A DNA stretch of 64,000 bases from the NCBI GenBank assembly GCA_963730915.1, contig CAVSTR010000004.1:535014-599013 (forward strand). Reading direction: 5' to 3'. The translations under genes and the position numbers were made by a program. Below are positions 28,146-46,075 of this stretch, piece after piece. Position 1 is the stretch's first letter, and every line of letters starts with the position of its first letter. Below the pieces are notes generated by a model. It saw only the letters and a program-made list of their open reading frames with translations, did no database searches and was not told where the DNA came from. This DNA comes from an uncultured Gemmatimonadales bacterium. GTDB taxonomy: Bacteria; Gemmatimonadota; Gemmatimonadetes; Gemmatimonadales; GWC2-71-9.

Positions 28146-28326
28146 CCAGGGGCATCGGGCTGCTCTATTGAGAGATCCCTCGCTACGCTCGGGATGACAT
28201 CTCAATCGAGCAAACTCGATTGAGATGTCACCCTTGGAACCTGATCCGGCTGATACCGGCGAAGGGAGCGCGGCGCCACGCGAACTCTTCGCGTCAACGC
28301 TCCCTTTCTAGATGGGGAGCATTTTT
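28146..28326 (+). promoter_or_regulatory. TPP (THI-box) riboswitch with expression platform
   Basis: GGGGCA...TTGAGATGTCACCCTTGGAACCTGATCCGGCTGATACCGGCGAAGGGAG matches the THI-box core. Downstream, CGCTCCC is an anti-SD element and GGGGAG is an SD 7 nt before ATG 28327. Confidence 0.8.
28174..28198 (+). repeat. REP-like unit (GATCCCTCGCTACGCTCGGGATGAC) inside the riboswitch
   Basis: 24/26 identical to the unit at 30148-30173. Confidence 0.7.
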
Positions 28327-30010
<1,684 letters not shown>

Positions 30011-30026
30011 GCGAACAGGTACAGCT

Positions 30027-30172
30027 GTCATCCCGAGCGGATGCGAGGGATCGTTTAACGAGACGTCCGTGTTGGGATCTCGTTATGGACGTCTCATCGA
30101 GCGATGCCTCGCCGCGCTCGGGATGACAGTCGAGAGCGCATGCTGGCGATCCCCCGCTGCGCTCGGGATGAC
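30027..30172. repeat. REP/MITE-like element: inverted pair GTCATCCCGAGCGG..GAGGGATCG / GCGATGCCTCGCCGCGCTCGGGATGAC plus a third direct unit
   Basis: Units at 30027-30052 (forward), 30101-30127 and 30146-30172 (reverse). The inner arms GAGACGTCC / GGACGTCTC are also complementary. Confidence 0.75.
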
Positions 30173-30263
30173 AGTCGTGTCCTCACCCTTGCCGACTCGC
30201 CTGCCGGACCGAATATTCTGCGGCTCCCGACCGCACCTCGCCCCCAACCTCCTGAGGTGAGCG

Positions 30264-31937
30264 ATGGCCCCGACCGAACTCAGCAGGGAACAGCAGATCC
30301 AGCAGGATGTCAGAGACCTGCACCGGCTCGGCTATGCCCAGCAGCTGTTCCGCGAGATGGGTGGATTCTCGAACTTTGCCATCTCCTTCTCGATCATTTC
30401 GATTCTGACGGGTGCGGTCCTTCTCTACGGCTACGGGCTCAAGTTCGCCGGGCCGATCATCAACACGGTCGGCTGGCCGCTCATCAGTGTGCTCACGCTC
30501 TGCGTGGCGGCGTCGATGGCGGAGCTGGCGTCGGCCTACCCGACCGCGGGAGGGCTCTACTTCTGGGCCTACCGGCTGGGCGGCCGGGGCTGGGCCTGGA
30601 CCACCGCGTGGCTCAACATGATCGGCCAGATCACCATCACGGCCGGGATCAACGTCGCCGCCTCGATCTACATCATCGGGGCCGTCACCCGCATCTTCGA
30701 CGTCCCGGCAGACGCCTCGGTGCCGGTCTTCGGGGCCACGACGAGCTGGTACTTCCAGATCTTCGTGATGGTGCTGATCATGATCCCCCAGGTGCTGATC
30801 AACATCCGGGGCATCCGGCTGACCGCCAGACTCAACGATTTCAGCGTCTACTGGCACATCGTCGGCGTAGCCGTCATCGTGGCGCTGCTGATCTTTCTCG
30901 GACGGCACCACAACAGCCTCGAGCTTCATGTTCTCCGGCTCGACCAGCGTCAACCCGCTCGACGCCTCTTCGGCCGACCTCGGCAGGGGCGTGCCCGAGC
31001 CGGCGCTGGTCTTCGGGAACTTCAAGTTTGCCGTCGCCGCTCTTCGCGCTGGTTCCCGGCCTCACCGATCTGTACCGGGCCGCGCCGTTCGTGCTCTGCT
31101 TCCTGCTCGCGACCCTGCAGGCGCAGTGGACCTACACCGGATACGACGCCTCGGCGCACGTGGCCGAGGAGACAGTGATGGCTCGGCTCAACTCCGCGTG
31201 GGGCGTCTTCCTCTCGGTGGCGGTCTCCGCGGTGGTGGGGTATATCGTGCTGCTGGCGCTGACCTGGTCGATCCCCGAGGGGAAGGTCGGCCGAAACCGC
31301 GGCCGACGCCTACCCGGTGCTGTACATCGTCTACAACAACCTCTCGACCTTCTTCGCCAACGTCGTGGCGATCATCATCGGCGTGGCGATGTGGCTCTGC
31401 GGCCTGGCCTCGATCACCTCGATGGGCCGGATGTGGTACGCGTTCGCCCGCGACGACGGGATGCCGGGCTCACGCCTCATCAAGCAGGTGAGCCCGACGT
31501 ACCGGACGCCGGTCTGGTCGATCGTCATCACCAGCGTGCTCGCCGTGTTGATCTGCCTCTACGCGGCGGCGTTCTTCGTGGTCACGTCGATCAGCACCAT
31601 CACCCTCTATCTGGCGTACATGTTTCCGATCTATCTCAACTGGCGCAACAAGCGCCGCGGCCAGGGCGAGTTCACCACGCCGGCGACGGCCCCGTGGAGC
31701 ATGGGACGGTGGGGGCCGCTGGTGAACGTCATCGCGATCGTGTGGGTGATGATCATTTCGGTCATCTTCAGCCTGCCGCCGAACGAGCTGGTGCTCTGGA
31801 CCATGCTGGGCCTCGCCGCCGTCCTTACCCTCTACTGGCAGCTGTCCGCCAAGAGGAACTTCGTCGGACCGGGCAAGACCGACGAAGCGGCGCTCCGAAA
31901 GCTCGAGGCGGCGTTCGCACCCGCAACAGCGAGCTAA
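30264..31937 (+). pseudogene. APC-superfamily amino acid/amine permease with three +1 frame breaks
   Basis: The protein is recoverable only by joining four pieces. These are ORF 30264.. (to ..LLIFLGRHHNS), ORF 30928.. (FMFSGSTSVNPLD..ALVFGNFKF), the 30104-frame (PLFALVPGLTDLYRAAPFVLCFLLATLQAQWTYTGYDASAHVAEE..SIPEGKV) and ORF 31317.. (..AYPVLYIVYNNL.. to the stop). Breaks lie at about 30915, 31030 and 31289. Confidence 0.8.
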
Positions 31938-31945
31938 AAGCCGTC

Positions 31946-33361
31946 ATGCAGAATCTGCTCATTGGAGACCGGCGCCCCACCGGCGCCGGCACGATCAGTG
32001 TTACCGAGCCCGCGCGCGGTAAGCCGATGGCCGAGGTGGCCTCGGCGGGCCCCGGGGAGCTGGACCAGGCCGTTGCCGCGGCGAGCCAGGCATTTCCCAT
32101 GTGGTCGGAGAAGACCGCCGTAGCACGGGCGGAAATTCTGTTCCGCTTTTCAGACGTCGTGCGGGCCCACGTCGATGAGCTGGCGACGCTCGAGGCGCGG
32201 AACGTCGGCAAGCCCATCGGCGACGCGCGGTGGGAGGCCAACCACGTCGCCGACACCCTGCGGTACTACGCCGGGGCCGCCGACAAGTTCTTCGGGGAAT
32301 CGATTCAGACGGCCAAGGCCGGTCTCGATATCACGCTGCGCCAGCCGCTCGGTGTGGTGGGACTGATCGTGCCGTGGAACTTCCCCATGGTGATCGCCAC
32401 CTGGAAGCTCGGTCCCGCCCTCGCCTGCGGCAACACCGTCGTGCTCAAGCCCGCCAGCCTCACGCCACTCACCGCGATCCGCCTGGGAGAGCTCGGCCTC
32501 GAGGCGGGGCTTCCGCCCGGGGTGCTGAACGTGATCCCCGGCCCCGGCGCCAAGATCGGCCAGCAGCTGTCGGCGCATCCCGACATCGCCAAGATCGCAT
32601 TCACCGGCGAGACCGAAACCGGCCGGCGGATCATGGCCACGGCCGCCGAGACCATTAAGCGCGTCTCGCTCGAGCTGGGCGGTAAGTCGCCCAACATCAT
32701 CTTTGCCGACGTCGACGTCGAAGAGGCGGCCAAACACGCCTGCGCTTCGGTGTTCGCCAACGCGGGCCAGGACTGCTGCGCCCGGGCCCGGGTGATCGTC
32801 GAGCGCAGGATTTATTCGAAGCTGGTCGAGGCAATGGCTACCGTCGCCAGGAACATGCGGGTGGGGAACCCGTTGGATGACAAAACCGACATGGGCCCCG
32901 TCATTTCCTCCAGCCAGCGCGACCGCACCGAGAGCTACGTGGCACTGGGCCGGCAGGAGGGCGCGCGCCATGTCTGTGGCGGGGAGCGGCTGGACGGCGA
33001 CGGCTTTTTCCTGCGGCCCGCGATCTTCGACAACGCCCGGCCCGGCATGCGGATCGTGAACGAGGAGATCTTCGGGCCGATGGTCGTGGTCATTCCGTTC
33101 GACACCGAAGCCGAAGCAGTCGCCATCGCCAACGACTCGATCTACGGGCTGTCGGGCTCGCTCTGGACCAACGACCTCAAGCGAGGTCTGCGCGTCGCTC
33201 GCGCGGTGCGCACCGGAGTCCTGTCGGTCAACTCGTCGTCCAGCGTCCACCTGCAAGCCCCGTTCGGAGGTTTCAAGCAGTCGGGTCTGGGACGCGAGCT
33301 GGGGATGCACGCAATGGAGCACTACACCGAGCTGAAGAACATCTATTTCGAGACGAGCTAG
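31946..33361 (+). CDS. NAD(P)-dependent aldehyde dehydrogenase (aminobutyraldehyde / PuuC-like)
   Basis: VPWNFP, ELGGKSP, FANAGQDCCA (catalytic Cys) and EEIFGP. This is the C-terminal 471 aa of the artificial 1085-aa ORF. Confidence 0.9.
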   Translation: MQNLLIGDRRPTGAGTISVTEPARGKPMAEVASAGPGELDQAVAAASQAFPMWSEKTAVARAEILFRFSDVVRAHVDELATLEARNVGKPIGDARWEANHVADTLRYYAGAADKFFGESIQTAKAGLDITLRQPLGVVGLIVPWNFPMVIATWKLGPALACGNTVVLKPASLTPLTAIRLGELGLEAGLPPGVLNVIPGPGAKIGQQLSAHPDIAKIAFTGETETGRRIMATAAETIKRVSLELGGKSPNIIFADVDVEEAAKHACASVFANAGQDCCARARVIVERRIYSKLVEAMATVARNMRVGNPLDDKTDMGPVISSSQRDRTESYVALGRQEGARHVCGGERLDGDGFFLRPAIFDNARPGMRIVNEEIFGPMVVVIPFDTEAEAVAIANDSIYGLSGSLWTNDLKRGLRVARAVRTGVLSVNSSSSVHLQAPFGGFKQSGLGRELGMHAMEHYTELKNIYFETS

Positions 33362-34727: not shown

Positions 34728-34746
34728 TGCGGCCGAGGTGCTCCTG

Positions 34747-35532
34747 ATGTCTCGACTCGACGGCAAGGTGGCGGTCATTACCGGTTCCGGAGCCGGACTC
34801 GGCGCCGAAGCCGCCAGGCTGTTTGCCCGGGAAGGCTGCGCGGTGGTGGTGAGCGACACCGACGCCACCGCGGGCGAGCGCGTGGTGGGAGAGATCAAGG
34901 CTGCAGGCGGCAAGGCGGTCTTCATCGCCGCCGACGTTCGCTCCGAGCGACCAGGTCGAGGCCTTTACGCCGGCGCCCGAAAGGCGTTCGGTCAGGTCAA
35001 CGTGCTGTACAACAACGCGGGGATGTCGCCGGGTGACGACGATGGCGTCGTCAACACCCCGGATGAGATCTGGGACCTGGTGCTCGACATCAACGTGAAG
35101 GGCGTGGCCCGCTGCTGCCGGGCCGGCATTCCCTATCTGCGGGAGGCCGGCGGCGGCTCCATCATCAACGTCGCCAGCTTCGTGGCGACGGTCGGCGCGG
35201 CCACACCCCAGATCGCCTATACCGCATCGAAAGGGGCTGTGCTCTCCATGACGAGAGAGATCGCGGTCATTCATGCTCGCGAGCGAATTCGAGCCAACGC
35301 GCTCTCTCCCGGGCCGGTGCGCACCGCTCTGCTGGAGAAGTTTCTGTCGACCGAAGAGAAACGACAGCGGCGGCTGGTGCACGTTCCCATGGGCCGCTTC
35401 GGCGAGCCGCGGGAGATCGCGCAGGCGGCGCTGTTCCTCGCGTCGGACGAATCGTCGTACATCACCGGCGCCGATTTCAGGGTGGATGGGGGGATCACCG
35501 CGGCCTACGTGACGCCGGAAGGAAAAGCGTAA
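34747..35532 (+). CDS. SDR family oxidoreductase
   Basis: [12 protein letters not shown] and YTASKGAV (YxxxK). GAGGTG SD lies 7 nt before ATG 34747. Confidence 0.85.
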
Positions 35533-35586: not shown

Positions 35587-35714
35587 GTCATCCCGAGCGG
35601 AGCGAGGGATCGTCCAATGAGACGTCCATAACTGGATCTCTGTACAAACGTCGCGTTAAGCGATCCCCCTCGCATCGATTGCCCGGGGCAGGCTCTCGCT
35701 CCGCTCGGGATGAC
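35587..35714. repeat. REP/MITE-like palindromic element (same family as 30027-30172)
   Basis: GTCATCCCGAGCGGAGCGAGGGATCG ... CGATCCCCCTCGC ... CTCGCTCCGCTCGGGATGAC. Confidence 0.75.
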
Positions 35715-35987
35715 ATCCTCCCAAATACGAAAACCGCCGACTACCAGACGCCAGCTGACATAGTCGAGCATGAACAAGCACGCCTCCGTGCAGCTGTGCG
35801 TTGGGCGCTGCCAGCCTTTGGCTTGGGACTGGTTGGATTAGCTGTTGGTTTTCTGGGCTACAGCATCGGGAATCTTGCTCTTCGACGACTTGCCTTGGGT
35901 ATTGCCGCCAGCGGGATTGTGCTTGGAGCATTCGGCGTAGTTCGACTCATGTGGATCATTGTCGCTGGCATACTACGCAATAAATAG
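35679..35987 (+). CDS. small two-TM membrane protein (possible first cassette; start uncertain, 5' part reads through the REP element)
   Basis: WALPAFGLGLVGLAVGFLGYSIG and IAASGIVLGAFGVVRLMWIIVAGIL helices. Followed directly by attC1. Confidence 0.3.
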   Translation: MPGAGSRSARDDILPNTKTADYQTPADIVEHEQARLRAAVRWALPAFGLGLVGLAVGFLGYSIGNLALRRLALGIAASGIVLGAFGVVRLMWIIVAGILRNK

Positions 35988-36004: not shown

Positions 36005-36105
36005 GCCTAACAAGCGCATGCAGCTGACGGACGCTTCAGTTCTAAGGAACATAGGATATTGCGCGAGCGGCGGAGTCGCCGCGGCTGATGCGCGGTCCGT
36101 TAGAC
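36005..36105 (+). repeat. attC 1
   Basis: GCCTAAC-AAGCGCATGCAGCTG...GCGGCTGATGCGCGGTCC-GTTAGAC. Confidence 0.75.
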
Positions 36106-36197
36106 CGCGGGCGGTTGTCCGCTTCTCGCGTAGGCATTAGGAAGGAGCGCTCCCGAGCAGTCATACCACTATTTGGTCCACAGGGAGGTATTTCGCG

Positions 36198-36848
36198 ATG
36201 GATGCAGCCCCCTCCCAGTATCGCACACTAATAGCAGTTACCAGCCTGATCGTGGGTCCGGCGCTGATGAGCATCGGGGACCTTTTCCATCCTGCAGAGA
36301 GCTGGGCAGCAGCTGCTCAGGTCGCGATCTTGGCAGAGTCGGCCTCGCGGTGGTATGTAGCTCATCTACTCCTATTCGTGGGAATGCTCCTCTTCATCCC
36401 GGGTATCCTAGCGCTTACGACGGTGGTGAGCAGGCGGAGACCCGCGGCCGGGTATGTTGCTAGGCTGCTCATGCTCGCTTCGGTGGGTGCCTTGTCAGCA
36501 GTGTTCGTGTTCGAGATGGTGCTGGGGCATTTCATCTGGGCTGGCGCCGGCCAGCAGGCCGCTGTCGCCCTCCTGGAAACCTTCCAGTCGGCCGCGGTCT
36601 TCGGGGCGCTCATGCCGGGCCTACTCGCGTTCTTCATTGGCACCGCGTTCGCAGTCGTGCCGCTGGCGTCCACGCCAGGTCCATTTCGGCTACCGGCACT
36701 CGGTTTCGCACTCGGCGCAACCCTGATTATGGGCGAGATCATCCTGGCCCAAGTGCTGCTGAGCCAAATCGGAAATATTATGATCCTTGTTGCCGGTACT
36801 GGCTTTGCACGGTCGCTCCTCCGTAGTAGAGGGGATGGACTAGTCTGA
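36198..36848 (+). CDS. cassette 1: polytopic membrane protein of unknown function
   Basis: About 6 hydrophobic helices. Single ORF between attC1 and attC2. Confidence 0.6.
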   Translation: MDAAPSQYRTLIAVTSLIVGPALMSIGDLFHPAESWAAAAQVAILAESASRWYVAHLLLFVGMLLFIPGILALTTVVSRRRPAAGYVARLLMLASVGALSAVFVFEMVLGHFIWAGAGQQAAVALLETFQSAAVFGALMPGLLAFFIGTAFAVVPLASTPGPFRLPALGFALGATLIMGEIILAQVLLSQIGNIMILVAGTGFARSLLRSRGDGLV

Positions 36849-36891
36849 CCTATTGTAGGGGCGCACGTGATCACCAACCACATTATGCGCG

Positions 36892-36992
36892 GTCTAACAA
36901 GCGCATGCAGCTGGCGGGCGCTTCAGCTCTAAGGAACGTTAGATAGTGTCCAAGCCGGCAAGTCGCCGCAGCTGATGCGCGGTCCGTTAGGC
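36892..36992 (+). repeat. attC 2
   Basis: GTCTAAC...GCAGCTGATGCGCGGTCC-GTTAGGC. Its R'' flank CGCGGTCTAAC is the reverse complement of the attC1 R' flank GTTAGACCGCG. Confidence 0.8.
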
Positions 36993-37022
36993 GGCGGATC
37001 ACGTCCCTCAACTCTCATTGTC

Positions 37023-37949
37023 ATGTCCGTGTTCAAATACGATATCGCGATTTCCCTCCTTGATCGTGACCTTGGACTCGCGCACGAAATAGCAAATCTC
37101 GTCAGCGACCGAGTGCCCGTCTTTCTTTACTCCGAGCAGCAGAGGCAGTTGGTCGCGAACGACGGCATGGATGAGTTCACGTCGGTATTTCGAAGGGAAT
37201 CGCGAACAGTACTCGTTCTTGCTCGCAAAGAATGGGGGCACACCAGTGGACACGGATTGAGGAGACAGCCATCAAGAATCGGGGGCTGACAGATGGATGG
37301 GATTTCGTAACCGTAGTTCCGCTGGATGGCAAGGAATCCGTCCCAGATTGGGTGCCTCAAACATACATTTGGGCGGATCTCGCGCGGTTGGGGGTGGCTG
37401 GGCTCGTCGCGGTTCTGGAGCGCAAACTTAAAGATCGCGGTTCTGCGATCAAGCCGGAAACGGCCCTTGACCTCCACGCCCCGGCTTCAGCGCGAGGCCC
37501 AAGAAAAGGAAAAGCGCTCTGCATTTCTTGGATCAAAGGCAGGTGCGGATGCAGCCGACGCCGAGTACACCCGGCTCGAAAGGGAAATCGAACCGAAGGC
37601 GACCCAGCTTGGGATGCAGGTCTCCAAGACCAGCTCGGCTCACCGCGGCATTACGCTTACACTGAAACGGCTAAGCCTTTCATTTGCGTGGGTCCGCCAG
37701 TACTCCAACAACCTCGACGGCTCAGAATTGCAGGTTAGGCTGTGGGATGGGATGCTTAGCCAAGACGTAGGGCGTGAGTTTCGTGCCAAGACTTCCAAGG
37801 ATTTGATGCTCGACTTCGACTCGCTCGCCGATCTTCACGGATGGCGGGAGCATAAAGGGCAATGCCGATTCTTCAGCTCGACTGAGTTGGTTGAATACAC
37901 ACTTAAGGCTCTCCTCAACGCAGTGGCCGGAAATAAGAAGGAGCTCTGA
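37023..37949 (+). pseudogene. cassette 2: TIR-like N-terminal domain protein (about 308 aa), two homopolymer frame breaks
   Basis: Joined from ORFs 36975.., 37232.. and 37326... MSVFKYDIAISLLDRDLGLAHEIANLV..RTVLVLARKEWG / HQWTRIEETAIKNR.. / ..RLQREAQEKEKR...NKKEL. Breaks are at the G5 run 37234-37238 and the C4 run 37479-37482. Confidence 0.45.
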
Positions 37950-37958
37950 TCGATAGCC

Positions 37959-38058
37959 GCCTAACAAGCGCATGCAGCCGACGGCGCTTCATGTGTAAGG
38001 AACGTTGGTTTGTGCGCATCCTAGGCAGTCGCCGCAGCTGATGCGTGGTCCGTTAGGC
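37959..38058 (+). repeat. attC 3
   Basis: GCCTAAC...GCAGCTGATGCGTGGTCC-GTTAGGC. Confidence 0.8.
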
Positions 38059-38083
38059 ATCCGCACCTCCGGGCAGGCACCCG

Positions 38084-38518
38084 ATGATTGAGTTCCGAAA
38101 GCGGATGTGGCTCTTGCCAGCAACCCTTGCGCTGACGTTAGTGCTCGGGATTATGCTCGCCGTTCTCGCCCGCGAGGTAATAATCTGCGTCGCGCTCGGG
38201 GACTGGGTAGCGGTACGTAGTTATGCGGTACCCGCGTTCATTCCTGTGGCGGGCCTTGTCTTCATTTGGTGGGGATACGCGTCGATCCTGACCCAGCAGA
38301 TCGATCACCAAGGCGTATCGGTACTTACGCTGCGATCTGGCCGCGTTGCGCTTCCGTGGTCCACAGTCAGGCGCGCCAGGTTCGAGCGCGCAACAGCTCT
38401 CCTCGAAGCCGGAGCGACCCGAGCCCGCATTGGATTCGCGATGTACAGCGACCACAAGGCAGCCGAGGCCTTTGCTCGAGCGCGCCTAGCAGAGTTTGGC
38501 GCACAAGTTGAGGGATAA
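38084..38518 (+). CDS. cassette 3: membrane-anchored protein of unknown function
   Basis: Two N-terminal TM helices and a soluble C-terminal about 70 aa. Sole ORF in the cassette. Confidence 0.55.
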   Translation: MIEFRKRMWLLPATLALTLVLGIMLAVLAREVIICVALGDWVAVRSYAVPAFIPVAGLVFIWWGYASILTQQIDHQGVSVLTLRSGRVALPWSTVRRARFERATALLEAGATRARIGFAMYSDHKAAEAFARARLAEFGAQVEG

Positions 38519-38535
38519 CTTCCGCTGGGGCGGAT

Positions 38536-38636
38536 GCCTAACAAGCGCATGCAGCTGGCGGTCGCTTCAGATCTAAGGAACGTAGGATTGTGAGTAGGCC
38601 GGCAGGTCGCCGCAGCTGATGCGCGGTCCGTTAGAC
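38536..38636 (+). repeat. attC 4
   Basis: GCCTAAC...GCAGCTGATGCGCGGTCC-GTTAGAC. Its R'' flank GCGGATGCCTAAC is the reverse complement of the attC3 R' flank (13/13). Confidence 0.8.
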
Positions 38637-38749
38637 AGCCTCACCACGAGGGAAGGCATTCCATTTGCGACGAGGGCTTTGTGAGGTGTCTTACCTTGTG
38701 AATCGTAATCTTTTTTGTTGCAGGCGTTGCGATTGTCGGCGGCGCCCTG

Positions 38750-39199
38750 ATGGCCTATCCGTACATCTATTATTGGGGCGCTGGCCGCTTCTGGGACAAA
38801 GCTGAGCCCGAGCTCCACCTCCTGACGGCGGGTTATCGGGGGCCTGTGCTTATCGTTTTCAGCGACTCATCGGGTGCACCGCCCAGGTATGAAGGGAAAG
38901 CCCGCCGCTATGACATTCCATTGTCGGGCTTCCTACGTACACAGTTTGGACCCAATCAAGGCTGGGGCCGCCCCGATTATGAATATGTCGATGCTGCCGG
39001 GAAGCGAACGAGGATCGTCCCAGGCACTCCCTGCAACCTTTCCCTTCCAGGAGATTCTGTTCAAGCGTGCTCAATGGGCAGAAAGTTCATAAAAGGCCGA
39101 TCGCCTGAGTATTCCGCGTATGTCGTCAGCCGGCGCGACAACCGGCGGCAGCTCTACGAGCGCGGCATAGTCTGGTGCGGGCGGTTGTGTTCGGAATAG
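38750..39199 (+). CDS. cassette 4: hypothetical protein (probably N-terminally longer)
   Basis: ORF as tracked. GTG 38698 (GAGGTG SD 9 nt upstream) would add a signal-anchor MNRNLFVAGVAIVGGALM if the T6 run 38711-38716 is one base too long. Confidence 0.5.
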   Translation: MAYPYIYYWGAGRFWDKAEPELHLLTAGYRGPVLIVFSDSSGAPPRYEGKARRYDIPLSGFLRTQFGPNQGWGRPDYEYVDAAGKRTRIVPGTPCNLSLPGDSVQACSMGRKFIKGRSPEYSAYVVSRRDNRRQLYERGIVWCGRLCSE

Positions 39200-39214
39200 A
39201 CGCTAGGTGATGCT

Positions 39215-39308
39215 GTCTAACAAGCGCATGCAGCGGACGGGCGCTTCAAATTCAAGGAACGTTAGATAGTGCCTACCCGTAAAAGTCGCCGTGCGCGGTC
39301 CGTTAGGC
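39215..39308 (+). repeat. attC 5 (7-bp deletion in the L' arm)
   Basis: GTCTAAC...GTCGCC-GTGCGCGGTCC-GTTAGGC lacks the GCAGCTGAT segment present in the other copies. Confidence 0.7.
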
Positions 39309-39325
39309 AGCGACAGAGAGACCCC

Positions 39326-39925
39326 GTGGACCTCAGTGTTATTGCGCTAACGAATACCATCGAGCGCCCCATCGGTTGGATCAGCCTGCTTCCTGACGGT
39401 TCCATCTCCGTCGGCCTGCGGGATCGCACTTTCATTGCCGCCCCAATCGACGCCCGACTGGATCTTTGGAATGCTGATAATCGCGTGACAGTCGAGTTCC
39501 TGGTGCCAGATGCGCCAGATCAGCTAGTTATGGTTCGGAATCCACATCTGACATTTCATCCTCCTATCGCATTCCATCTGGTGGCGAACGACAGTCAAGA
39601 GCTCTTCGCCGGTATCGCGGATCTCCAAATCATGCTGGACGAAATCCCGGAAGTGCCGTGGATTAGGTTTGTATCTCGTCCCGCTGAAGAGATCAAGCCG
39701 AGCGCGGGCCCTCGCAAGCCTGGCCGAACTCAATTCATCTCTCTCCCGCTGACCTCGACCCGCTGTTCCGTAGGTGTTGCGGTTGATTTTGTACAGCCCG
39801 GAAGTCGGGGGCCGTCCGGGCGCCCGATAGATTACTTCGCAGATTGTGGGGCCAATCGCATACGTGTGTCTTGTGAGCCACTCGCGCCGCAATCACCCAC
39901 TTTAGCATGGTACCACCAACACTAA
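39326..39925 (+). CDS. cassette 5: hypothetical protein
   Basis: The ORF-track start 39269 lies inside attC5. GTG 39326 is the first start past the core site. Confidence 0.5.
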   Translation: MDLSVIALTNTIERPIGWISLLPDGSISVGLRDRTFIAAPIDARLDLWNADNRVTVEFLVPDAPDQLVMVRNPHLTFHPPIAFHLVANDSQELFAGIADLQIMLDEIPEVPWIRFVSRPAEEIKPSAGPRKPGRTQFISLPLTSTRCSVGVAVDFVQPGSRGPSGRPIDYFADCGANRIRVSCEPLAPQSPTLAWYHQH

Positions 39926-39941
39926 GCACTAGAGCGGCGCT

Positions 39942-40040
39942 GACTAACAAGCGCATGCAGCCGACGGCGCTTCAGGTCTAAGGAACGTTGGATTGTGCCC
40001 AGTGGAGAAGTCGCCGCAGCTGATGCGCGGTCCGTTATGT
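39942..40040 (+). repeat. attC 6
   Basis: GACTAAC...GCAGCTGATGCGCGGTCC-GTTATGT (variant core). Confidence 0.7.
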
Positions 40041-40068
40041 GGCCCCGACCGGCTAGGGGGTTCCCTCG

Positions 40069-40614
40069 TTGACACAGCTTTTCTGGCTGCCGAACGATGC
40101 CGGACCGCTGCTTCTACTACCCGAAGCTCTACTTTCAGAATGGTCCGGAATTGATGTGCCTGATTATCGGCCGGTCAGCGCGACCTTTCGGTGGAGTTCC
40201 CAGGAAACTGGCGCTTCCGACTACGACCGGGCCTGCGACGTCAATGATTACGTCGGGGCGATCCCGTCGGGCACGGAGAAGGCTTGGTGCTGAACGACAC
40301 ACCCTCTGCAACGGCGTGGCTCCCGCGATCGTGGGGTGGCCTACTCGCACGATGGGAGTATGCCGACAGCGATGGAGCCATGGAGCATGCATTGGCCAGG
40401 ATTCGGGCGACCTGCCCTGGGAATCGAAGGGGAGTCTGCGCCTCGTAGGCTCGCCCAGGAAGTGTTCAACAGCGCCGAACCCGGCGCGGAACCGGTGCTT
40501 CCCCGATTGAAGCTCGAGATGCCACCTGGAAACTATAGCGTACGGTGGACGCCGTACCGCCCTGACCTTCGCACAGCGGTCGGATTGATCGAAGTCCGAC
40601 GCACACAGGATTAG
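40069..40614 (+). pseudogene. cassette 6: Imm21-like immunity protein, three -1 frame breaks
   Basis: LFWLPNDAGPLLLLPEALLSEWSGID..SDYDRACDVNDYVGAIPSG / GEGLVLNDTPSATAWLPRSWGGLLARWEYADSD.. / ..LPWESKGSLRLVGSP / EVFNSAEPGAEPVLPRLKLEMPPGNYSVRW... Breaks lie at about 40270, 40406 and 40459. Confidence 0.55.
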
Positions 40615-40660
40615 CGACTACGGCGCCAGTTCTCATAGAGTGCAGTATCACGACCGGGCC

Positions 40661-40761
40661 ACATACCAAGCGCATGCAGCTGGCGGGCGCTTCACATTTA
40701 AGAAACGTTAGATAGTGTCCATGCGGGCAAGTCGCCGCAGCTGATGCGCGGTCCGTTAGGC
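40661..40761 (+). repeat. attC 7 (R'' mutated to ACATACC)
   Basis: ...AAGCGCATGCAGCTGGCGGGCGCTTCA...GCAGCTGATGCGCGGTCC-GTTAGGC. Confidence 0.7.
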
Positions 40762-40806
40762 TGCTCCGTCCATCGAGTCCTGCGGATATCGCCGGAGAAG
40801 AGGTTA

Positions 40807-41304
40807 ATGGCTGGCGAACGGCGCCCGACCGCGAAGGGTCCACAAGCTGAGGCTGTGCGCACGCGGTGGCATGACATTGACCTTGCCATCGAGGGGCTGC
40901 GGCGAAGTGAGGTAAATGCAATCGAGCGGTGCCTCCAATTCCTGGAGGAGGATCCGAACTTTCATAGGTCCGGCTATGTGAAGGAATCGATTTGGCGCCG
41001 GTTCATTAACGCCGAGGTGCCACCTCGACAGCTCCGGCGCCTTGAGGACATTGGGCTGGCTTATCTCGACCGACGAATGACACGTGAGTTCTGGTACATG
41101 GCCCGTACCATGGCTGAACGTGCAAGTTATGCTTTCTGGGAAGCAGTTAGGCGCGAGACACTCTCAGCAGATCGAGCGACCAAACGTCGTGCGACGGCCC
41201 TTCTGGCCTATGAGCACGGCACGGCTGCTGGGGAGGCCATGCGGAAGGAAGTCTGGTACCAGGCCGCGAAAGAACGATCGGCCCAGCGCCGATCACGCAA
41301 GTGA
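40807..41304 (+). CDS. cassette 7: hypothetical helical protein
   Basis: ATG 40807 with GAAGAGG SD. The ORF-track start 40744 lies inside attC7. Confidence 0.5.
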   Translation: MAGERRPTAKGPQAEAVRTRWHDIDLAIEGLRRSEVNAIERCLQFLEEDPNFHRSGYVKESIWRRFINAEVPPRQLRRLEDIGLAYLDRRMTREFWYMARTMAERASYAFWEAVRRETLSADRATKRRATALLAYEHGTAAGEAMRKEVWYQAAKERSAQRRSRK

Positions 41305-41307
41305 GCA

Positions 41308-41405
41308 GTCGAACAAGCGCATGCAGCTGGCGGGCGCTTCAGGTCAAAGGAACTAGGATGTGTCCAAACGAGCAGTCGCCGCAGCTGATGCGCGGTCCGT
41401 TAGGC
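41308..41405 (+). repeat. attC 8
   Basis: GTCGAAC-AAGCGCATGCAGCTGG...GCAGCTGATGCGCGGTCC-GTTAGGC. Confidence 0.7.
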
Positions 41406-41428
41406 AGCAAACCAACACGGAGGTGCGC

Positions 41429-41791
41429 TTGAGATCATCCAGAACCATACCCCTCTACGTCTCAGCTCTTGCTCTGGTCGCGTGCAGCGGCGGGACCGTG
41501 ATCGACGACAGCTGCTTCGTGGACCTTGCGCCGATCAGTGCCCGGACCCACGTGGTAAGCGTCGGGGACACGGTCACGTTCGAGGCCACCCTGGGACCAG
41601 CCGAGTGTCTGCCTGCGAATGTGGAATCTGAAGAGTGGCGTTGGTCCAGCACCGACACGCTGATTGCGCGGATCGATTCCCTGACAGGATTGGCAGAGGG
41701 CGTTAGTCCAGGCGACGTGGGAATTCTGGTACGACACGCTCTGGCCCCGAGCGTGCAGGGTGCTACTGGATTCCAAGTTGCAGCAGACTGA
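41429..41791 (+). CDS. cassette 8: small lipoprotein with bacterial Ig-like (Big_2-type) domain
   Basis: GGAGG SD then TTG 41429. Lipobox LALVAC. VSVGDTVTFEATLG..WSSTDTLIARIDSLTGLAEGVSPGDVGILV. Confidence 0.5.
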   Translation: MRSSRTIPLYVSALALVACSGGTVIDDSCFVDLAPISARTHVVSVGDTVTFEATLGPAECLPANVESEEWRWSSTDTLIARIDSLTGLAEGVSPGDVGILVRHALAPSVQGATGFQVAAD

Positions 41792-41810
41792 AGACATCAA
41801 CGCGGCCCCT

Positions 41811-41837
41811 GATCTGACCAGGCGCGGTCCGTTAGGC
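41811..41837 (+). repeat. attC 9 remnant (L'-R' half only)
   Basis: GATCTGACCAGGCGCGGTCC-GTTAGGC. No matching R''/L'' arm upstream. Confidence 0.5.
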
Positions 41838-41855
41838 GGACTTTACGGAGATCAT

Positions 41856-42230
41856 ATGGTGGCTTGCGTTCGTATAGACGCCCAGGCCGTACTGATAGTC
41901 AGCCTGGCGCTCACCAGCTGCTCTGAATGGGGCGGCTGCACTCTGAGCGTAGAGCCGGGCGTACTCGTAGAAATCAGAGATGCAGCCGATGGAACACCGA
42001 TCGCGGCCACGGCTTCCGGCACTATTCTGGATGGCAGCTACCAGGATTCGTTACGAATGTATGACGGCTCTCTCACTCGAGCAGGTGCTGATGAGCGCGA
42101 AGGCACCTATACAGTGCAGGTGCTCCACGCTGGCTACATGCCCTGGGAGCGACGAGATATCCGCGTGCGGGAAACGGGGTGCCATGTCGATACCGTTACG
42201 CTTCAGGCTGATTTGCAACGAGCACCGTAG
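41856..42230 (+). CDS. cassette 9: small lipoprotein with carboxypeptidase-regulatory-like fold
   Basis: GGAGA SD then ATG 41856. Lipobox LALTSC. GTYTVQVLHAGYMPWERRDIRV. Confidence 0.5.
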   Translation: MVACVRIDAQAVLIVSLALTSCSEWGGCTLSVEPGVLVEIRDAADGTPIAATASGTILDGSYQDSLRMYDGSLTRAGADEREGTYTVQVLHAGYMPWERRDIRVRETGCHVDTVTLQADLQRAP

Positions 42231-42240
42231 CCCAACAGGC

Positions 42241-42340
42241 GCTTAACAAGCGTATGCAGCTGACGGCGCCTCACTTCAAAGGAAAGTAGGATAGGTCCAA
42301 ATCGGACCAGTTCCCGCAGGTGATGCGCGATCCGTTGGAT
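42241..42340 (+). repeat. attC 10 (divergent copy)
   Basis: GCTTAAC-AAGCGTATGCAGCTGACGG...CGCAGGTGATGCGCGATCC-GTTGGAT. Confidence 0.65.
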
Positions 42341-42448
42341 GGCACCACGCACTCATGTCGGACAGATAAGACTACGTACCGGGGACCCGATAGCCCCGGC
42401 CATGTCAGCCGGGATTATCGGACGACCGACCTGTGATCCACGTCTCTG

Positions 42449-42969
42449 TTACTGTCCCGAGCTCTCACCCAGGGCGACGAGAAGCTCGTCCAGCTGATCG
42501 AACGTCTCGCCCATTGCATCGGCTGCTCCGGTGCCACAGCGTCGAGCGCTTCCTTCGAAGGATAGCTCTCGCGCAGGACCACCAGCGTCTTGCCGCCGTT
42601 TTCCTCGAAGGTCACCGTGGTGACAGGCCCGCCCTCGCCAGCTTCCTCATTGGTCCACGCGAGGCGCGAATACGGCCTCACTTCCACATACGTGCCGAAA
42701 AACGCGGCAGGCTCGGCGCCACCGTGGTCGAATACCAATCGGTACTTGCCTCCGACACGAGCATCCACCTCGCAGGACAGCAGGGTCATTCCCATCGACT
42801 TCGGCACCCACCAACGCTTGAGCAGCTCGGCCTTGGTAAATGCCTCGAACACGAGGCGCGCCGGGCCGTTGATGGTCCGCGTGACAACCACCTCGCGGTC
42901 CGACTTCCGTTCCACCGTGGTGCGGTTCTTCACGGGGCCGGGCTCACTTGCGATTCTTGCGTTCATCAC
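42449..42969 (-). pseudogene. cassette 10: SRPBCC/Aha1-like protein, frame broken near 42526-42540
   Basis: VVVTRTINGPARLVFEAFTKAELLKRWW..VTFEENGGKTLVVLRE. The expected tail ..GAADAMGETFDQLDELLVALGESSGQ-TAA(42449) is in another frame than ORF 42415..42969. Confidence 0.65.
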
Positions 42970-43296
42970 TCTTCTCCTTTCGTGTCAGTTCCTCGACAAC
43001 CTTGTTTAACTCGTCGAAGCGTTCGTCCCAACGCTGGCGGTACCTCTCGAGCCACGCCGTCTCTTGCTCCAACCGGCGCGGGCCCAGCTGGCAGGTCCGC
43101 ACGCGCCCGATCTTCTTCGTGGTGACGAGCCCCGCCTGCTCCAGAACACCAACGTGCTCTTCATGCCCGTGAGCGTCATGTGGAACTTCTCGGCAAGGTC
43201 CGTGATCAAAGCGTCGGCTCGTCCGAGCTGCTCCAGGACGCCACGCCGCGTGGCGTCCGAGAGCGCGGCGAACGAAGTATCAAGTCGGGTCGTCAT
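42944..43296 (-). pseudogene. cassette 10: ArsR/SmtB-family transcriptional regulator, frame broken near 43157-43161
   Basis: MTTRLDTSFAALSDATRRGVLEQLGRADALITDLAEKFHMTLTGMK / HVGVLEQQAGLVTTKKIGRVRTCQLGP..RKNRK-TGA(42944). It overlaps the SRPBCC start. Confidence 0.65.
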
Positions 43297-43321
43297 ATAC
43301 TGAACCATATGGTTCAGTATA
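43296..43321. promoter_or_regulatory. perfect 26-bp palindrome, candidate ArsR operator
   Basis: TATACTGAACCATATGGTTCAGTATA lies immediately 5' of (and touching) the arsR start codon on the minus strand. Confidence 0.55.
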
Positions 43322-43381
43322 TTAACGCAACCGTCCGCGGCATGCAAGGGGCGGACGAGTTACACTCATGCATGAGGTGCA

Positions 43382-43482
43382 GCCTAACAAGGGGGTGCAG
43401 CGGGCGGACGCTTCAGGTCTGAGGAATGTTAGGAGTGTGAAAGCGCGAAAGTCGCCCGCAGCTGATGCGCGGTCCGTTGGGC
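43382..43482 (+). repeat. attC 11 (divergent copy)
   Basis: GCCTAAC-AAGGGGGTGCAGCGGGCGG...CGCAGCTGATGCGCGGTCC-GTTGGGC. Confidence 0.7.
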
Positions 43483-43565
43483 GGCCGCCCGGCTTACCTC
43501 TACGCCTCTCCCTTCAGGAGGAGCTGTCTGGCTGGTCCGTTCATCACACTGATTTCGGAGATCCG

Positions 43566-43943
43566 ATGGGTCGGCAGATTGTCTCAACATCGAAGGCAGC
43601 AAAGCCACCCGCGACCTACAGCCAGGCAGTGAAGGCCGCGGGCCTGGTATTTGTTTCGGGCACAGCCCCGGCCGACCCTGCGACGGGCGGTTTGGTCGGC
43701 GCAACCATCCAGGAGCAAACACGGCAGTGTCTGACGAACATTGCCGCCATCCTCCAAGAGGCCGGCAGCTCGCTTGAGAAGATTGTGAGTGCGACGGTGA
43801 TTCTGGCGGAAGAGGAGGATTTTGGAGGCATGAATGAGGAATGGGTCCGATGGTTTCCCTAGCCTCCGGCTCGCCAAGGCGCCAAACTGCCTGTGCGGGT
43901 TCCCGGTCTGAAGGTCTCGATTGCCGCCATTGCCGAGGCATAG
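43566..43943 (+). pseudogene. ridA: cassette 11: RidA/YjgF family deaminase with in-frame TAG at 43860-43862
   Basis: ATYSQAVKAAGLVFVSGTAPADP..IQEQTRQCLTNIAAILQEAG..NEEWVRWFP-TAG-PPARQGAKLPVRVPGLKVSIAAIAEA-TAG. The family C-terminus continues in the same frame after the stop. Confidence 0.65.
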
Positions 43944-43984
43944 GGGCCGTTAGAAAGCGGCTCTATCCAGGAACTGGGAGTCTG

Positions 43985-44516
43985 ATGCGCCGAGTCGTCT
44001 ACCGCGTTGCCGCGAGTGTCGACGGGTACATCGCCGGGCTCCACGGCGAGGTGGATTGGATCGTGCACGATTCCGCAGTGGACTTCGTGAAGGTCTACGA
44101 AGGGGTCGACACCGTGCTCCTGGGCCGGCGCACCTATGAACTCACCCGCCAACCGGGCGCGCCCCCTTGGCCGCAGGGTTGGCGGATCTATGTCTTCTCC
44201 CGAACACTCAATCCGGAGGAACATCCAGGGGTGACGGTGGTGAGGGTCGAGGCGGGTCCACACGTCGCTGCCCTCCGCGCCGCGCCCGGGCGGGATATCT
44301 GGCTTTTCGGCGGTGGCGGTCTATTCCGGAGTTCTGCTTGGGGCCCAGCAGGTGGACCTCGTGGAGGTGCTGCTCGTGCCGGTCCTGCTCGGGGGCGGCA
44401 TCCCTCTCCTGGAGAGGGGAGCACCGCTGATACAGCTGGCACTGGAGCAGGTGGAGAGGTATCCAAGCGGGCTACTCAGTCTGAGGTATCGTGTCCCGGA
44501 CTCCGCCGCCGTCTAA
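43985..44516 (+). pseudogene. cassette 12: RibD C-terminal-domain (dihydrofolate-reductase-like) protein, frame broken near 44332
   Basis: MRRVVYRVAASVDGYIAG..TVLLGRRTYE..GRDIWLFGGGGLFRS / LLGAQQVDLVEVLLVPVLLGGGIPLL..LLSLRYRV. The stop TAA lies inside GTCTAAC of attC12. Confidence 0.65.
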
Positions 44517-44537
44517 CCCACAAATGCAGCCGACCCG
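44511..44537 (+). repeat. attC 12 remnant (R''-L'' half only)
   Basis: GTCTAAC-CCACAAATGCAGCCGAC. The right half is missing, and the next ORF starts at 44540. Confidence 0.5.
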
Positions 44538-44539
44538 AC

Positions 44540-44938
44540 ATGGACCACATCTTTCTTCCTGGTGAGGAGACATGGTACGCCAGCGATTCGCCAACCTCAC
44601 AGTTCAGCGCCATTTTCGAGGATGACGGCGACACTGGGTACTTCTACGCATGGGATCGTGCCCGCGAAGAGGGAGCGATCCTCGACGCCGTGCACATTTA
44701 CACCGTTCGGAATGTCATTGATCGCGAGATCGATTCGAAGGCTGCGATCATCTGGTCGGAGGATGGGCTGAAGGCGGTATTGCTACTGAACGACTACCCT
44801 CAAGCGGTGATCGATTTTCAAGCACGCCGGGCCTACTCTCGCTCAAACTTCCCCCCACCAGGGGGAGAGTGGCGCGCGTCCGAGCGGGCGCCATGGGAGG
44901 ATGACCTGATGCGACTGTTCGATGGCTCTGGCGCCTGA
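44540..44938 (+). CDS. cassette 13: DUF2251-like protein
   Basis: FEDDGDTGYFYAWDRAREEGAILDAVHIYTV..IIWSEDGLKAVLLLNDYPQAVIDF. The stop TGA lies inside the R'' of attC13. Confidence 0.5.
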   Translation: MDHIFLPGEETWYASDSPTSQFSAIFEDDGDTGYFYAWDRAREEGAILDAVHIYTVRNVIDREIDSKAAIIWSEDGLKAVLLLNDYPQAVIDFQARRAYSRSNFPPPGGEWRASERAPWEDDLMRLFDGSGA

Positions 44939-45029
44939 CAAGCGCATGCAGCTGCCGGGCGCTTCACTCATAAGGAACTTAGGATAGAGAACGCTTAAGC
45001 AGTCGGCGCAGCTGATGCGCGGTGAAGAC
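44933..45029 (+). repeat. attC 13 (terminal copy, R'' GCCTGAC, R' core lost)
   Basis: GCCTGAC-AAGCGCATGCAGCTGCCGGGCGCTTCA...GCAGCTGATGCGCGGT-GAAGAC. Confidence 0.6.
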
Positions 45030-45162
45030 TGGCGCATCGTGTGGTCTCATGCGACCGCGGCCGCGCCTTGAGCTCGGGCTCGCGGCTCACCGCTAAAGGC
45101 GAGTATAAGCAGTCGTGTGTGACGATGTAGGTTGTGCGACACTCTCCAAAGTGAAGGGCATC

Positions 45163-45555
45163 ATGGCAGACGCGACCGCTCGCTCGCAAGCAGCGTATCC
45201 CTACGCCACCCATCTCAACATTCACTATGACCAGCTCGAGCTGGTCGACGTACAATCTCTTGTCGACGCCTGCAAAGACCAATGGTACAACCAGACCCTG
45301 TGCCGCGTGAATGATTCGGTGGTGCGGCTTGGGGTTCTGCAGGGCGAATACCATTGGCACAAGCATGACAATGAAGACGAATTTTTTTATGTCATCGAAG
45401 GCCACTTCCTGATTGATCTAGAGGATCGGACGATCGACTTGGGACCGCGACAAGGCTTTGTGGTGCCGAAAGGTGTTGTCCACCGTACGCGGGCTCCCGA
45501 GCGCGCGGTGATCTTAATGGTGGAGAACGCTGGTATCGTCCCCACCGGGGACTAG
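45163..45555 (+). CDS. cupin domain protein
   Basis: GEYHWHKHDNEDEFFYVIEG..VVPKGVVHR. Confidence 0.7.
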   Translation: MADATARSQAAYPYATHLNIHYDQLELVDVQSLVDACKDQWYNQTLCRVNDSVVRLGVLQGEYHWHKHDNEDEFFYVIEGHFLIDLEDRTIDLGPRQGFVVPKGVVHRTRAPERAVILMVENAGIVPTGD

Positions 45556-45598: not shown

Positions 45599-46075
45599 AT
45601 GACAGTCAAGCGTATGGACAACGTCGGCATCGTGGTAGAAGACATCGATGCCGCCATTGAGTTTTTCACCGAGCTTGGCCTGAAACTCGAAGGGCGAGCC
45701 ATGATCGAAGGAGAGTGGGCCGGGCGCGTCACCGGGCTGGGGACCCAGCGCGTCGAGATCGCCATGATGGTCACTCCGGACGGCCACAGCCGGCTCGAGC
45801 TTTCGCGATTCCTCGCCCCGCCCGTCGTCGCCGATCACCGCAACGCCCCGGTGAACGCGCTCGGCTACCTGCGCGTCATGTTCACCGTGGAGGACATCGA
45901 CGATACGCTCGCCCGGCTCCGCAAACGCGGCGCGGAGCTCGTCGGCGAAGTGGTCCAGTACGAAGACACGTATCGGCTCTGCTACATCCGGGGCCCCGAA
46001 GGAATTCTCATCGGGCTCGCCCAACAACTCGGGCAGCAGACTTCCCGAGCGAATCCCATGAAACGCAAGCGGTAA
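45599..46075 (+). CDS. VOC (glyoxalase/bleomycin-resistance/dioxygenase) family protein
   Basis: MDNVGIVVEDIDAAIEFFTELGL..RVMFTVEDIDDTLARL. Confidence 0.8.
   Translation: MTVKRMDNVGIVVEDIDAAIEFFTELGLKLEGRAMIEGEWAGRVTGLGTQRVEIAMMVTPDGHSRLELSRFLAPPVVADHRNAPVNALGYLRVMFTVEDIDDTLARLRKRGAELVGEVVQYEDTYRLCYIRGPEGILIGLAQQLGQQTSRANPMKRKR

Follow-up and report, generated by a model that had tools for sequence, protein, structure and literature searches.

An integrase-less integron cassette array at a conserved chromosomal position in an uncultured Gemmatimonadales bacterium

What is the roughly 100-nt imperfect palindrome that recurs between short genes in the chromosome of an uncultured Gemmatimonadales soil bacterium, and does it belong to an element whose genes can still move? 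We addressed this question in a 64,000-nt stretch of contig CAVSTR010000004.1 (assembly GCA_963730915.1, positions 535,014 to 599,013 of the forward strand), hereafter called the window. An earlier reading of the letters alone (the sequence-only reading) had proposed an integrase-less integron cassette array, and this proposal is supported by an attC covariance model, by the fold of the repeats, by the linkage of the same repeats to integron integrase (intI) genes in other genomes, and by the absence of intI from the window. We consider it highly probable that the locus is a sedentary, positionally conserved CALIN (an attC cluster that lacks an integron integrase) and part of a Gemmatimonadales integron system. 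The label follows the definition of Cury et al., since the locus shows two or more attC sites and intI is absent from its vicinity. The array is chromosomal and consists of about 14 gene cassettes of 0.58–1.14 kb each.

The repeats were inventoried by direct reading of the sequence, anchored on AAC and GTT, the conserved triplets of the outer boxes R'' (left) and R' (right); the inner boxes are called L'' and L'. Eleven copies lie within 36005–45023, ten of them full and one without R'. The family is confined to 36.0–45.0 kb, where all matches are on the + strand, and there are none elsewhere in the window. A repeat search of 35–46 kb gave a unit spacing of 0.58–1.58 kb from start to start. 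The left conserved end, AACAAGCGCATGCAGC, has 11 matches at three or fewer mismatches against 0.62 expected, and the right conserved end, GCTGATGCGCGGTCCGTT, has nine matches at the same threshold against 0.13 expected. R' fits GTTRRRY in nine of the ten full sites, the exception being GTTATGT, and R'' fits RYYYAAC in 7 of 11 (exceptions GACTAAC, ACATACC, GTCGAAC, and GCCTGAC); in the wider family of attC sites described below, GCCTAAC and GTTAGGC predominate. The sequence-only reading had counted about 10 full and 3–4 decayed sites that were some 80% similar to each other, and both estimates hold: we count 10 full sites, one truncated site, and three remnants, and the mean pairwise identity of the 10 full sites is 77.7% (range 66–90%). 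The clustering is that of a CALIN, with 11 sites, a bottom strand that is always the − strand, and a largest gap of 1.55 kb.

A single scan of species-representative genomes, in which both conserved ends of the repeat served as the pattern, returned 40 stretches (cited here by their L numbers) with about 190 copies of the repeat, almost all of them in Gemmatimonadales metagenome-assembled genomes (MAGs). IntI homologs adjoin the same repeat family in five of these loci (L010, L016, L009, L022, and L040). The five proteins are 53–75% identical to IntI1 over the matched stretches, and the two full-length matches are 53–56% identical; the IntI1 query itself scored 799 bits on the NCBIfam IntI1 equivalog, which validates it. 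The L010 integrase scored 423 bits on TIGR02249, "integron integrase," for which the cut-off is 265. Downstream of intI and in the same direction, L010, L016, L009, and L022 carry a conserved sequence of about 70 nt, ...GATGTTAG...GGTCCAYTWAYTA|GTTAGRC, which in L010 ends with ...TAGTTAGGC; L040 has only the terminal ACTAGTTAGGC. In all five loci, the attI-like end is followed by the first cassette and then by the repeat family, and the bases after the attI-like GTT pair with the pre-AAC bases of the first repeat at 6–11 of 14 positions, the first six to nine of which are contiguous. Because its post-GTT bases pair with the first attC in this way, the conserved sequence behaves as attI.

Some features of these relatives are recorded in their own right. 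L010 (3761–4830) and L016 (5444–4386, − strand) carry complete integrons with this attC family downstream of clpB–tadA, and their intI is transcribed toward the attI-like sequence and the cassettes, an orientation that is atypical and known from Treponema (PMC3607928). In L022 (5493–5821), an intI pseudogene, detectable only over residues 221–330 and spread over two frames, stands beside a normal array. L037 (6783–7296) and L005 (7437–7700) hold an attI-like site, one cassette, and an attC, with no intI upstream; in that MAG, the element adjoins homologs of window genes at 54.6–61.7 kb. The L037 sequence is a perfect hairpin at a contig end and looks like an assembly artifact.

A covariance model, R1, was built from 39 bottom strands taken solely from integrase-linked contigs of other Gemmatimonadales genomes and was searched with filters off across the whole window. 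R1 found all 11 window sites, every one on the − strand, at 62.6–115.5 bits (E = 3e-16 to 3.5e-32). The best scores after these, 17.8 bits at most, came from the same sites read on the opposite strand, so that this family-specific model, which is not the generic attC model, matched the 11 sites and nothing else. The scores of the window sites lie within the range seen in 15 other loci. An Rfam scan of the window gave no match, Rfam being without any attC family. A length variant of about 140 nt occurs in L006 (2470–2608, 3448–3588, and 7629–7766) and L033 (1214–1354 and 2284–2425); its extra sequence lies in the variable terminal part, and it scores 48–59 bits with R1.

The − strand DNA fold reads 5'-RYYYAAC / GGACC / GCGCAT·CAGCTG·CGG·CG ... 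CG(n)CCG(n)CAGCTG(C)ATGCGC / TT / GTTRRRY-3', with the R and L boxes paired and an unpaired spacer between them. Pair counts were made on this stated structure in place of an RNAalifold consensus: over 150 sites, the R helix was paired in 93% of cells and the L/stem helix in 96%, against 29–38% in slid controls. The arm that faces AAC has bulges at positions 16 and 23 (counted from the 3' end), which a 6-bp stem keeps apart, and optionally a third at position 27; at position 23, 74 of the 150 sites have C and 66 have T. Nivina et al. (PMC5027507) describe the same layout for canonical attC sites, in which the extrahelical bases 16 and 23/24 stand on the arm facing AAC and are likewise separated by a 6-bp stem. 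Folding the bottom strands, as the sequence-only reading had suggested, thus puts these bases where the canonical description has them. Both the bulged bases and the asymmetric unpaired spacer of that reading are present, the spacer having 5 nt on one arm and 2 nt on the other. Two G:T pairs (GG/TT) are possible only on the − strand, and in canonical sites G:T pairs favor the bottom strand (PMC5027507). The structural support rests on palindromy and geometry. From their sequence, the window repeats are integron attC sites, and their recombination by IntI is a prediction.

Junctions between cassettes were examined over the 8 nt beyond the 7-nt core in 136 pairs of neighboring repeats, drawn from the window and the 40 related loci. 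In adjacent sites, the bases after the GTT of one repeat matched the reverse complement of those before the next AAC at a mean of 4.03 of 8 positions, with at least 6/8 in 24% of pairs; random pairs gave 2.88 of 8 (at least 6/8 in 2.6%), and opposite ends of one site gave 3.26 of 8 (at least 6/8 in 2%). The excess in adjacent pairs is significant against random pairs (p = 4e-15) and against same-site ends (p = 5e-5). Within the window, the junctions match over 8, 7, 10, 7, 7/8, 9, and 6/9 nt, and the adjacent neighbor is the best-matching partner in most of them. The three neighbor complementarities quoted in the sequence-only reading, checked on the window sequence, are exact as written. That reading took them as its decisive detail; they do demonstrate cassette junctions, but they give no orientation, because the rule is symmetric under reverse complement and so assigns no top strand. 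The orientation of the array was instead taken from the bulged bases and from gene direction. The pattern is what circular cassettes inserted by G|TT crossover would leave as their footprint, and we read it as such.

No integrase gene or remnant was detected in the six frames of the 64 kb by tblastn with IntI1, XerC, and Gemmatimonadales IntI (best E = 0.47 and 0.63), and a search with the family attI gave only chance matches of 10–15 nt in the window (E ≥ 1), bearing out the claim that the 64 kb hold neither. A GTTAAGC at about 35655 was considered and rejected as a chance occurrence, as it lies within a REP-like (repetitive extragenic palindromic) element and has no attC or attI context. A promoter scan with the sigma-70 consensus, which may not fit Gemmatimonadota promoters, found one site against 3.0 expected. 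With no intI and attI beside the array, the window does not hold a complete integron; with no integrase and only 11 attC sites, the array also falls outside the sedentary chromosomal integrons of Cury et al., who ask for a complete integron that either occurs in every genome of the species or exceeds 19 attC sites. We call it sedentary only on account of its position, which is conserved across four genomes.

This position is best seen in L020 and L014, which are adjacent pieces of one contig, as one attC is split across their ends. Their joint array lies between the same SDR gene (87.4% nucleotide identity) and the same VOC gene (86.8%) as that of the window. After the SDR gene come 1.7 kb that hold a decayed attC and two genes without attC, then about 14 attC sites over 10.4 kb, and then 1.4 kb before the VOC gene. 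The two arrays share just three cassettes, encoding a cupin, a RidA protein, and a membrane protein (cassette 1). Against flanks at 87%, the RidA cassette is 96.3% identical in nucleotides and cassette 1 is 75.8% identical. The cupin gene is the first true cassette in L020 and L014 and follows the truncated last attC in the window, and the shared cassettes occur in reversed order with their orientation kept. As one cassette is closer than the flanks and another far less close, and as the reordering took place without inversion, deletion or unequal crossing-over alone does not account for the differences. The comparison points to cassette-level exchange after the species diverged, presumably by an integrase acting in trans. 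In L021 and L031, thiC (28403–30010 in the window) also lies just to the left of integrase-less arrays. Window cassettes recur in other, unrelated arrays as well: cassettes 1 and 10 and the RidA cassette in L006/L004, cassette 10 in L030, and the RibD_C cassette in L022, beside its intI remnant.

The intervals between the repeats contain coding stretches of 0.32–1.05 kb, with one gene per interval ending just before the repeat; the exception is a reversed pair. The genes encode small membrane proteins, lipoproteins, DUF6843, DUF2251, Big_2, Imm21, RidA, and RibD_C proteins, and an ArsR-like plus AHSA1 pair. Most of the proteins have no known function, and no resistance genes are present. All features below are on the + strand unless stated otherwise, and scores in bits refer to R1.

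At the left end, cassette 0 (35679..35987), a small membrane-protein open reading frame (ORF) from the ORF list with no Pfam match, has its 5' boundary (attI or attC) missing. AttC 1 (36005..36105; R'' GCCTAAC, R' GTTAGAC) scores 115.5 bits, its recombining bottom strand being the − strand. It is followed by cassette 1 (36198..36848), which encodes a 216-aa membrane protein with homologous cassettes in L020 (77% amino acid identity) and L006/L004 (90%). AttC 2 (36892..36992; GTCTAAC...GTTAGGC; 113.3 bits) has pre-AAC bases that match 8 nt after the GTT of attC 1. Cassette 2 (37023..37949) is a frame of about 300 aa with no Pfam match and with an in-frame TGA at 37287–37289; its N-terminus, MSVFKYDIAISLL..., recalls TIR-like domains, with nothing significant found. 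AttC 3 (37959..38058; 107.9 bits) precedes cassette 3 (38084..38518), a 144-aa membrane protein (ORF list, Pfam scan), and attC 4 (38536..38636; 112.2 bits) shows 10-nt junction complementarity with attC 3. Cassette 4 (38750..39199) encodes a DUF6843 protein (PF20862, E = 1e-10).

In the middle of the array, attC 5 (39215..39308; 69.4 bits), whose L'-side stem is about 7 nt short in the alignment, is followed by cassette 5 (39326..39925), a 199-aa protein of no known family (ORF list, Pfam scan). AttC 6 (39942..40040; 99.8 bits) has the noncanonical R' GTTATGT, and its ATGTGGCCC is complementary over 9 nt to the sequence preceding R'' of attC 7. In cassette 6 (40069..40614), an Imm21 gene is split over two frames, and PF15589 matches at profile positions 2–54 of 159 only. 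AttC 7 (40661..40761; 101.9 bits) has R'' ACATACC, in which AAC has become ACC; cassette 7 (40804..41304) encodes a 166-aa protein of no known family (ORF list, Pfam scan). AttC 8 (41308..41405; 89.2 bits) is followed by cassette 8 (41432..41791), a Big_2 domain lipoprotein (PF02368) with an LVAC lipobox-like N-terminus, and then by a remnant consisting of the R' end only, GCGCGGTCCGTTAGGC (41822..41837), which was found by the repeat search and corresponds to nhmmer model positions 84–100.

Toward the right end, cassette 9 (41856..42230; ORF list) encodes a small lipoprotein-like protein and is bounded by the diverged attC 9 (42241..42340; 62.6 bits). Cassette 10 (42415..43347, − strand) is the reverse two-gene unit noticed in the sequence-only reading, an ArsR-like helix-turn-helix regulator with an AHSA1/SRPBCC protein (PF08327); both genes are frameshifted relative to their relatives, the tblastn matches to L030 and L004 being split over two frames. 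AttC 10 (43382..43482; 66.9 bits) is diverged in L''. Cassette 11 (43566..43943) encodes RidA (L-PSP; PF01042, positions 3–90 of 121), in which a 3-nt deletion produces a premature TAG at 43860–43862, codon 99 of the 127-aa frame that L014 and L006 keep intact. The cassette ceases to match that of L014 at a probable attC remnant, CCGTTAGAA, 3' of the RidA gene (about 43944..43955); compared by eye, the post-GTT bases of this remnant agree at 8 of 10 positions with the reverse complement of those preceding the AAC at 44515. Cassette 12 (43976..44516), a RibD_C-family reductase (PF01872), carries a +1 frameshift near 44318 relative to the intact L022 copy. At 44511..44534, the repeat search found a remnant with R''–L'' only, GTCTAACCCACAAATGCAGCCGAC, where the intact homologous cassette of L022 has a full attC. 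Cassette 13 (44540..44938), a DUF2251 protein (PF10008, E = 4e-34), has its TGA stop inside the R'' of attC 11 (44933..45023; 71.5 bits; nhmmer positions 2–92), a truncated site that keeps L' and has lost the spacer and the R' GTT. The sequence-only reading had several stop codons inside R''; we find only two, TAA at 44514–44516 and TGA at 44936–44938. At least five cassette genes of the array are thus disrupted. In the eight flank genes that have a single-domain Pfam match, nearly the full profile is covered, so the damage is confined to the array and cannot be put down to sequencing error.

Both flanks are kept beside the orthologous array. Upstream of the first cassette, which has no 5' boundary, lie a REP-like palindrome at 35588–35720 and the SDR gene (34738..35532, +; PF13561; 87.4% nucleotide and 92.8% amino acid identity to L014), as the sequence-only reading had described for the left side. 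On the right, that reading had named cupin and VOC genes as the flank. The VOC/glyoxalase gene (45599..46075, +; PF00903; 86.8% nucleotide identity to L020) is indeed flank, but the cupin gene (45115..45555, +; PF07883) is probably a former cassette without its attC: it is 86.5% identical to a bona fide L014 cassette bearing attC on both sides, and the border at 45029 is not clean. The wider neighborhood, with an M24 peptidase, ThiC, an aldehyde dehydrogenase (ALDH), a GS-like enzyme, and the SDR on the left and the cupin, the VOC enzyme, a BNR protein, DUF892, YjbR, and a beta-lactamase-fold hydrolase on the right, is chromosomal housekeeping. The G+C content is 56–61% in the array against about 63–66% in most of the flanks.

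The REP-like palindromic unit, TCATCCCGAGCGGAGCGAGGGATC, has four copies in the window and none expected by chance. Copies lie at 28174–28197, 30103–30171, and 35588–35720, with an inverted pair at 35.6–35.7 kb, and bracket the ALDH/GS-like/SDR block (30.1–35.5 kb), which stands between thiC and the array here and not in L021. Within this block, a 1085-aa ORF (30104–33361) has its aldehyde dehydrogenase domain only at residues 629–1080; its first 600 or so codons overlap REP-like copies and give a weak permease match only, and probably the true start lies far downstream or another gene is hidden there. The cumulative GC skew, which is weak, climbs steadily from 0 to 0.96 over the window (1–64000). 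Should the + strand be the leading one, the bottom strands of the attC sites may lie on the leading-strand template, as they do in 25 of 30 sedentary chromosomal integrons (PMC5371416).

Several observations weigh against the CALIN reading. In 146 of 150 sites the bulged base at position 16 is C, where G is usual; the extra L'' base of the top strand is G and hence the bottom-strand bulge C. The spacer is asymmetric, 5 nt versus 2 nt, and not 5–6 nt per arm; canonical sites have G16 and T23–24 as extrahelical bases and usually 5–6 spacer nucleotides on each arm (PMC5027507). The covariance test used the family-specific R1 and not the generic model of IntegronFinder. Folding energies of bottom and top strands show no consistent difference and are thus not usable for orientation. 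There is no significant covariation across the 150 sites, and covariation is unusable as evidence here because the stems are nearly invariant; RNAalifold on a gapped alignment of the 150 bottom strands returned an empty consensus structure, probably because of gaps around the bulges. AAC is mutated in two sites (ACC and GAC). Four sites are remnants or truncated, and many genes are broken. These signs of damage are as compatible with a relic as with an array that is still serviced, and the case for reshuffling rests on three shared cassettes only.

One further reading holds that the array was split from a complete integron by rearrangement, with intI–attI elsewhere on the chromosome, for example at clpB–tadA, and both loci forming one system. 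We give it an even chance; it refines the CALIN reading without contradicting it. It fits the two relatives (L010 and L016) that have intI–attI downstream of clpB–tadA with the same attC family, the finding that about half of CALINs lie in IntI-encoding replicons (Cury et al., PMC4889954), and the evidence for cassette exchange between the window and L020 and L014. Yet the two loci were found together in none of the genomes examined, and the thiC/SDR-linked array is without intI in all four genomes in which its flanks are visible (the window, L014/L020, L021, and L031). Whether the array is still serviced in trans is, in our judgment, evenly poised. A stronger version, in which Gemmatimonadales have a two-locus integron, with a platform downstream of clpB–tadA whose intI is transcribed toward attI and a positionally conserved integrase-less array near thiC that outlasts speciation, the two still exchanging cassettes in trans via C16 attC sites, is a tentative proposal that we place somewhat below even odds.

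Alternatively, the locus may be a dead relic, a former integron array, or a portion of one, whose integrase was lost from the lineage and which no longer recombines, its differences from the orthologous array having arisen through old events, homologous recombination between attC sites that are about 80–90% identical, and deletions. The disrupted cassette genes (at least five), the three attC remnants and one truncated copy, the two mutated AAC triplets, the lack of attI, and the single promoter-like site against 3.0 expected from the sigma-70 consensus all fit this view, as do the intI pseudogenes of the clade (L022, residues 221–330 only, over two frames) and the attI-like site without intI in L005/L037. 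We nevertheless regard a relic as rather unlikely: 7 of the 11 attC sites score 89–115 bits, like those of integrase-linked arrays; with flanks at 87%, the two species have RidA cassettes that are 96% identical; and the shared cassettes were reordered without inversion, for which deletion or unequal crossing-over is insufficient. Finally, it is very improbable that the repeats only resemble attC and are palindromes of the REP/BIME (bacterial interspersed mosaic element) kind, miniature inverted-repeat transposable elements (MITEs), or a CRISPR-like array: the near invariance of the repeats without covariation, the empty Rfam scan, and the true REP-like element close by at 35588–35720 speak for such repeats, but the same repeats stand directly downstream of intI–attI in five loci, complementarity passes from one repeat to the next, the RYYYAAC/GTTRRRY cores and the bulges at 16 and 23 are present, and each interval holds a single gene ending just before the repeat. 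REP/BIME-like palindromes and MITEs were rejected on the intI linkage, the junction rule, and the attC cores and bulges, and a CRISPR array on the size of the repeats (about 100 nt versus about 23–50 nt) and the coding intervals of 0.32–1.05 kb in place of short noncoding spacers.

Under the CALIN reading, then, the array spans 35.7–45.6 kb of the window, and its unit is a short gene, or in one case a reversed regulator-plus-effector pair, with an attC of about 100 nt. By analogy with known integrons, each attC would form a hairpin from its − strand, the R and L boxes being paired and some bases bulging out. An integron integrase would make its cut in AAC between A and C, corresponding to G|TT on the top strand, and cassettes could leave the array as circles and be inserted again. 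The cognate integrase of related genomes lies at another locus, downstream of clpB–tadA, transcribed toward attI and cassettes, and any recombination of this array would for that reason have to take place in trans. Standing at a position conserved between species, the array has exchanged or reshuffled its cassettes since these diverged. With no attI, no recognizable promoter, and at least five disrupted genes, it would now be a largely silent, slowly decaying reservoir; we infer both the lack of expression and any present-day mobility in trans.

Gemmatimonadota, a soil phylum listed among those with integrons (PMC8618304), has no further description of them in the literature searched, and the locus supplies a clean, well-delimited CALIN from it. 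The 40 loci define a Gemmatimonadales attC family with its cognate intI and attI, which could mark the hosts of soil metagenomic cassettes. Orthologous integrase-less arrays with conserved flanks and different, reordered cassettes bear on whether CALINs are debris or active reservoirs, and if the two-locus reading were true, there would be CALINs that serve as lasting, functional components of an integron and are not debris. The window array concerns no resistance genes and leaves the understanding of integrons unchanged.

Among known systems, the closest are CALINs, a common and described class with at least two clustered attC sites (gaps up to 4 kb) and no intI within 4 kb or intI pseudogene within 10 kb (Cury et al. 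2016, IntegronFinder; PMC4889954), whose discussed origins include intI loss, rearrangement, and secondary-site insertion, with mobilization in trans (PMC4889954). Like them, the window has attC sites on one strand (11 and three remnants) with spacings below 4 kb, no intI or pseudogene within 10 kb of the array, and cassettes for small proteins, mostly of unknown function and without resistance genes. Unlike most of them, it is large, only 6.6% of CALINs exceeding 10 sites (PMC4889954); its locus is demonstrably orthologous between species while its cassette content differs; and it was identified with a family-specific model and not with that of IntegronFinder. The Vibrio cholerae repeat (VCR) superintegron and the Xanthomonas arrays share with it long attC sites (about 100 nt) that are highly similar within a lineage (PMC5371416, PMC5027507). 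As in sedentary chromosomal integrons, the context is chromosomal housekeeping (thiC, ALDH, GS, SDR) and the cassettes are mostly of unknown function, with toxin-immunity-type and regulator-pair cassettes among those of the window; the differences are the lack of integrase and attI, the host phylum Gemmatimonadota, C16 in place of G, and the spacer of 5 nt versus 2 nt. The likeness to Treponema-type integrons, with intI, attI, and cassettes all in one direction (PMC3607928), concerns the integrons of the relatives (L010, L016, L009, L022, and L040) and not the window array. The array is therefore a further example of a known element class and not a new one, its points of value being a taxon-specific attC/attI/intI set, the C16 flipped base, and an orthologous CALIN pair with divergent content.

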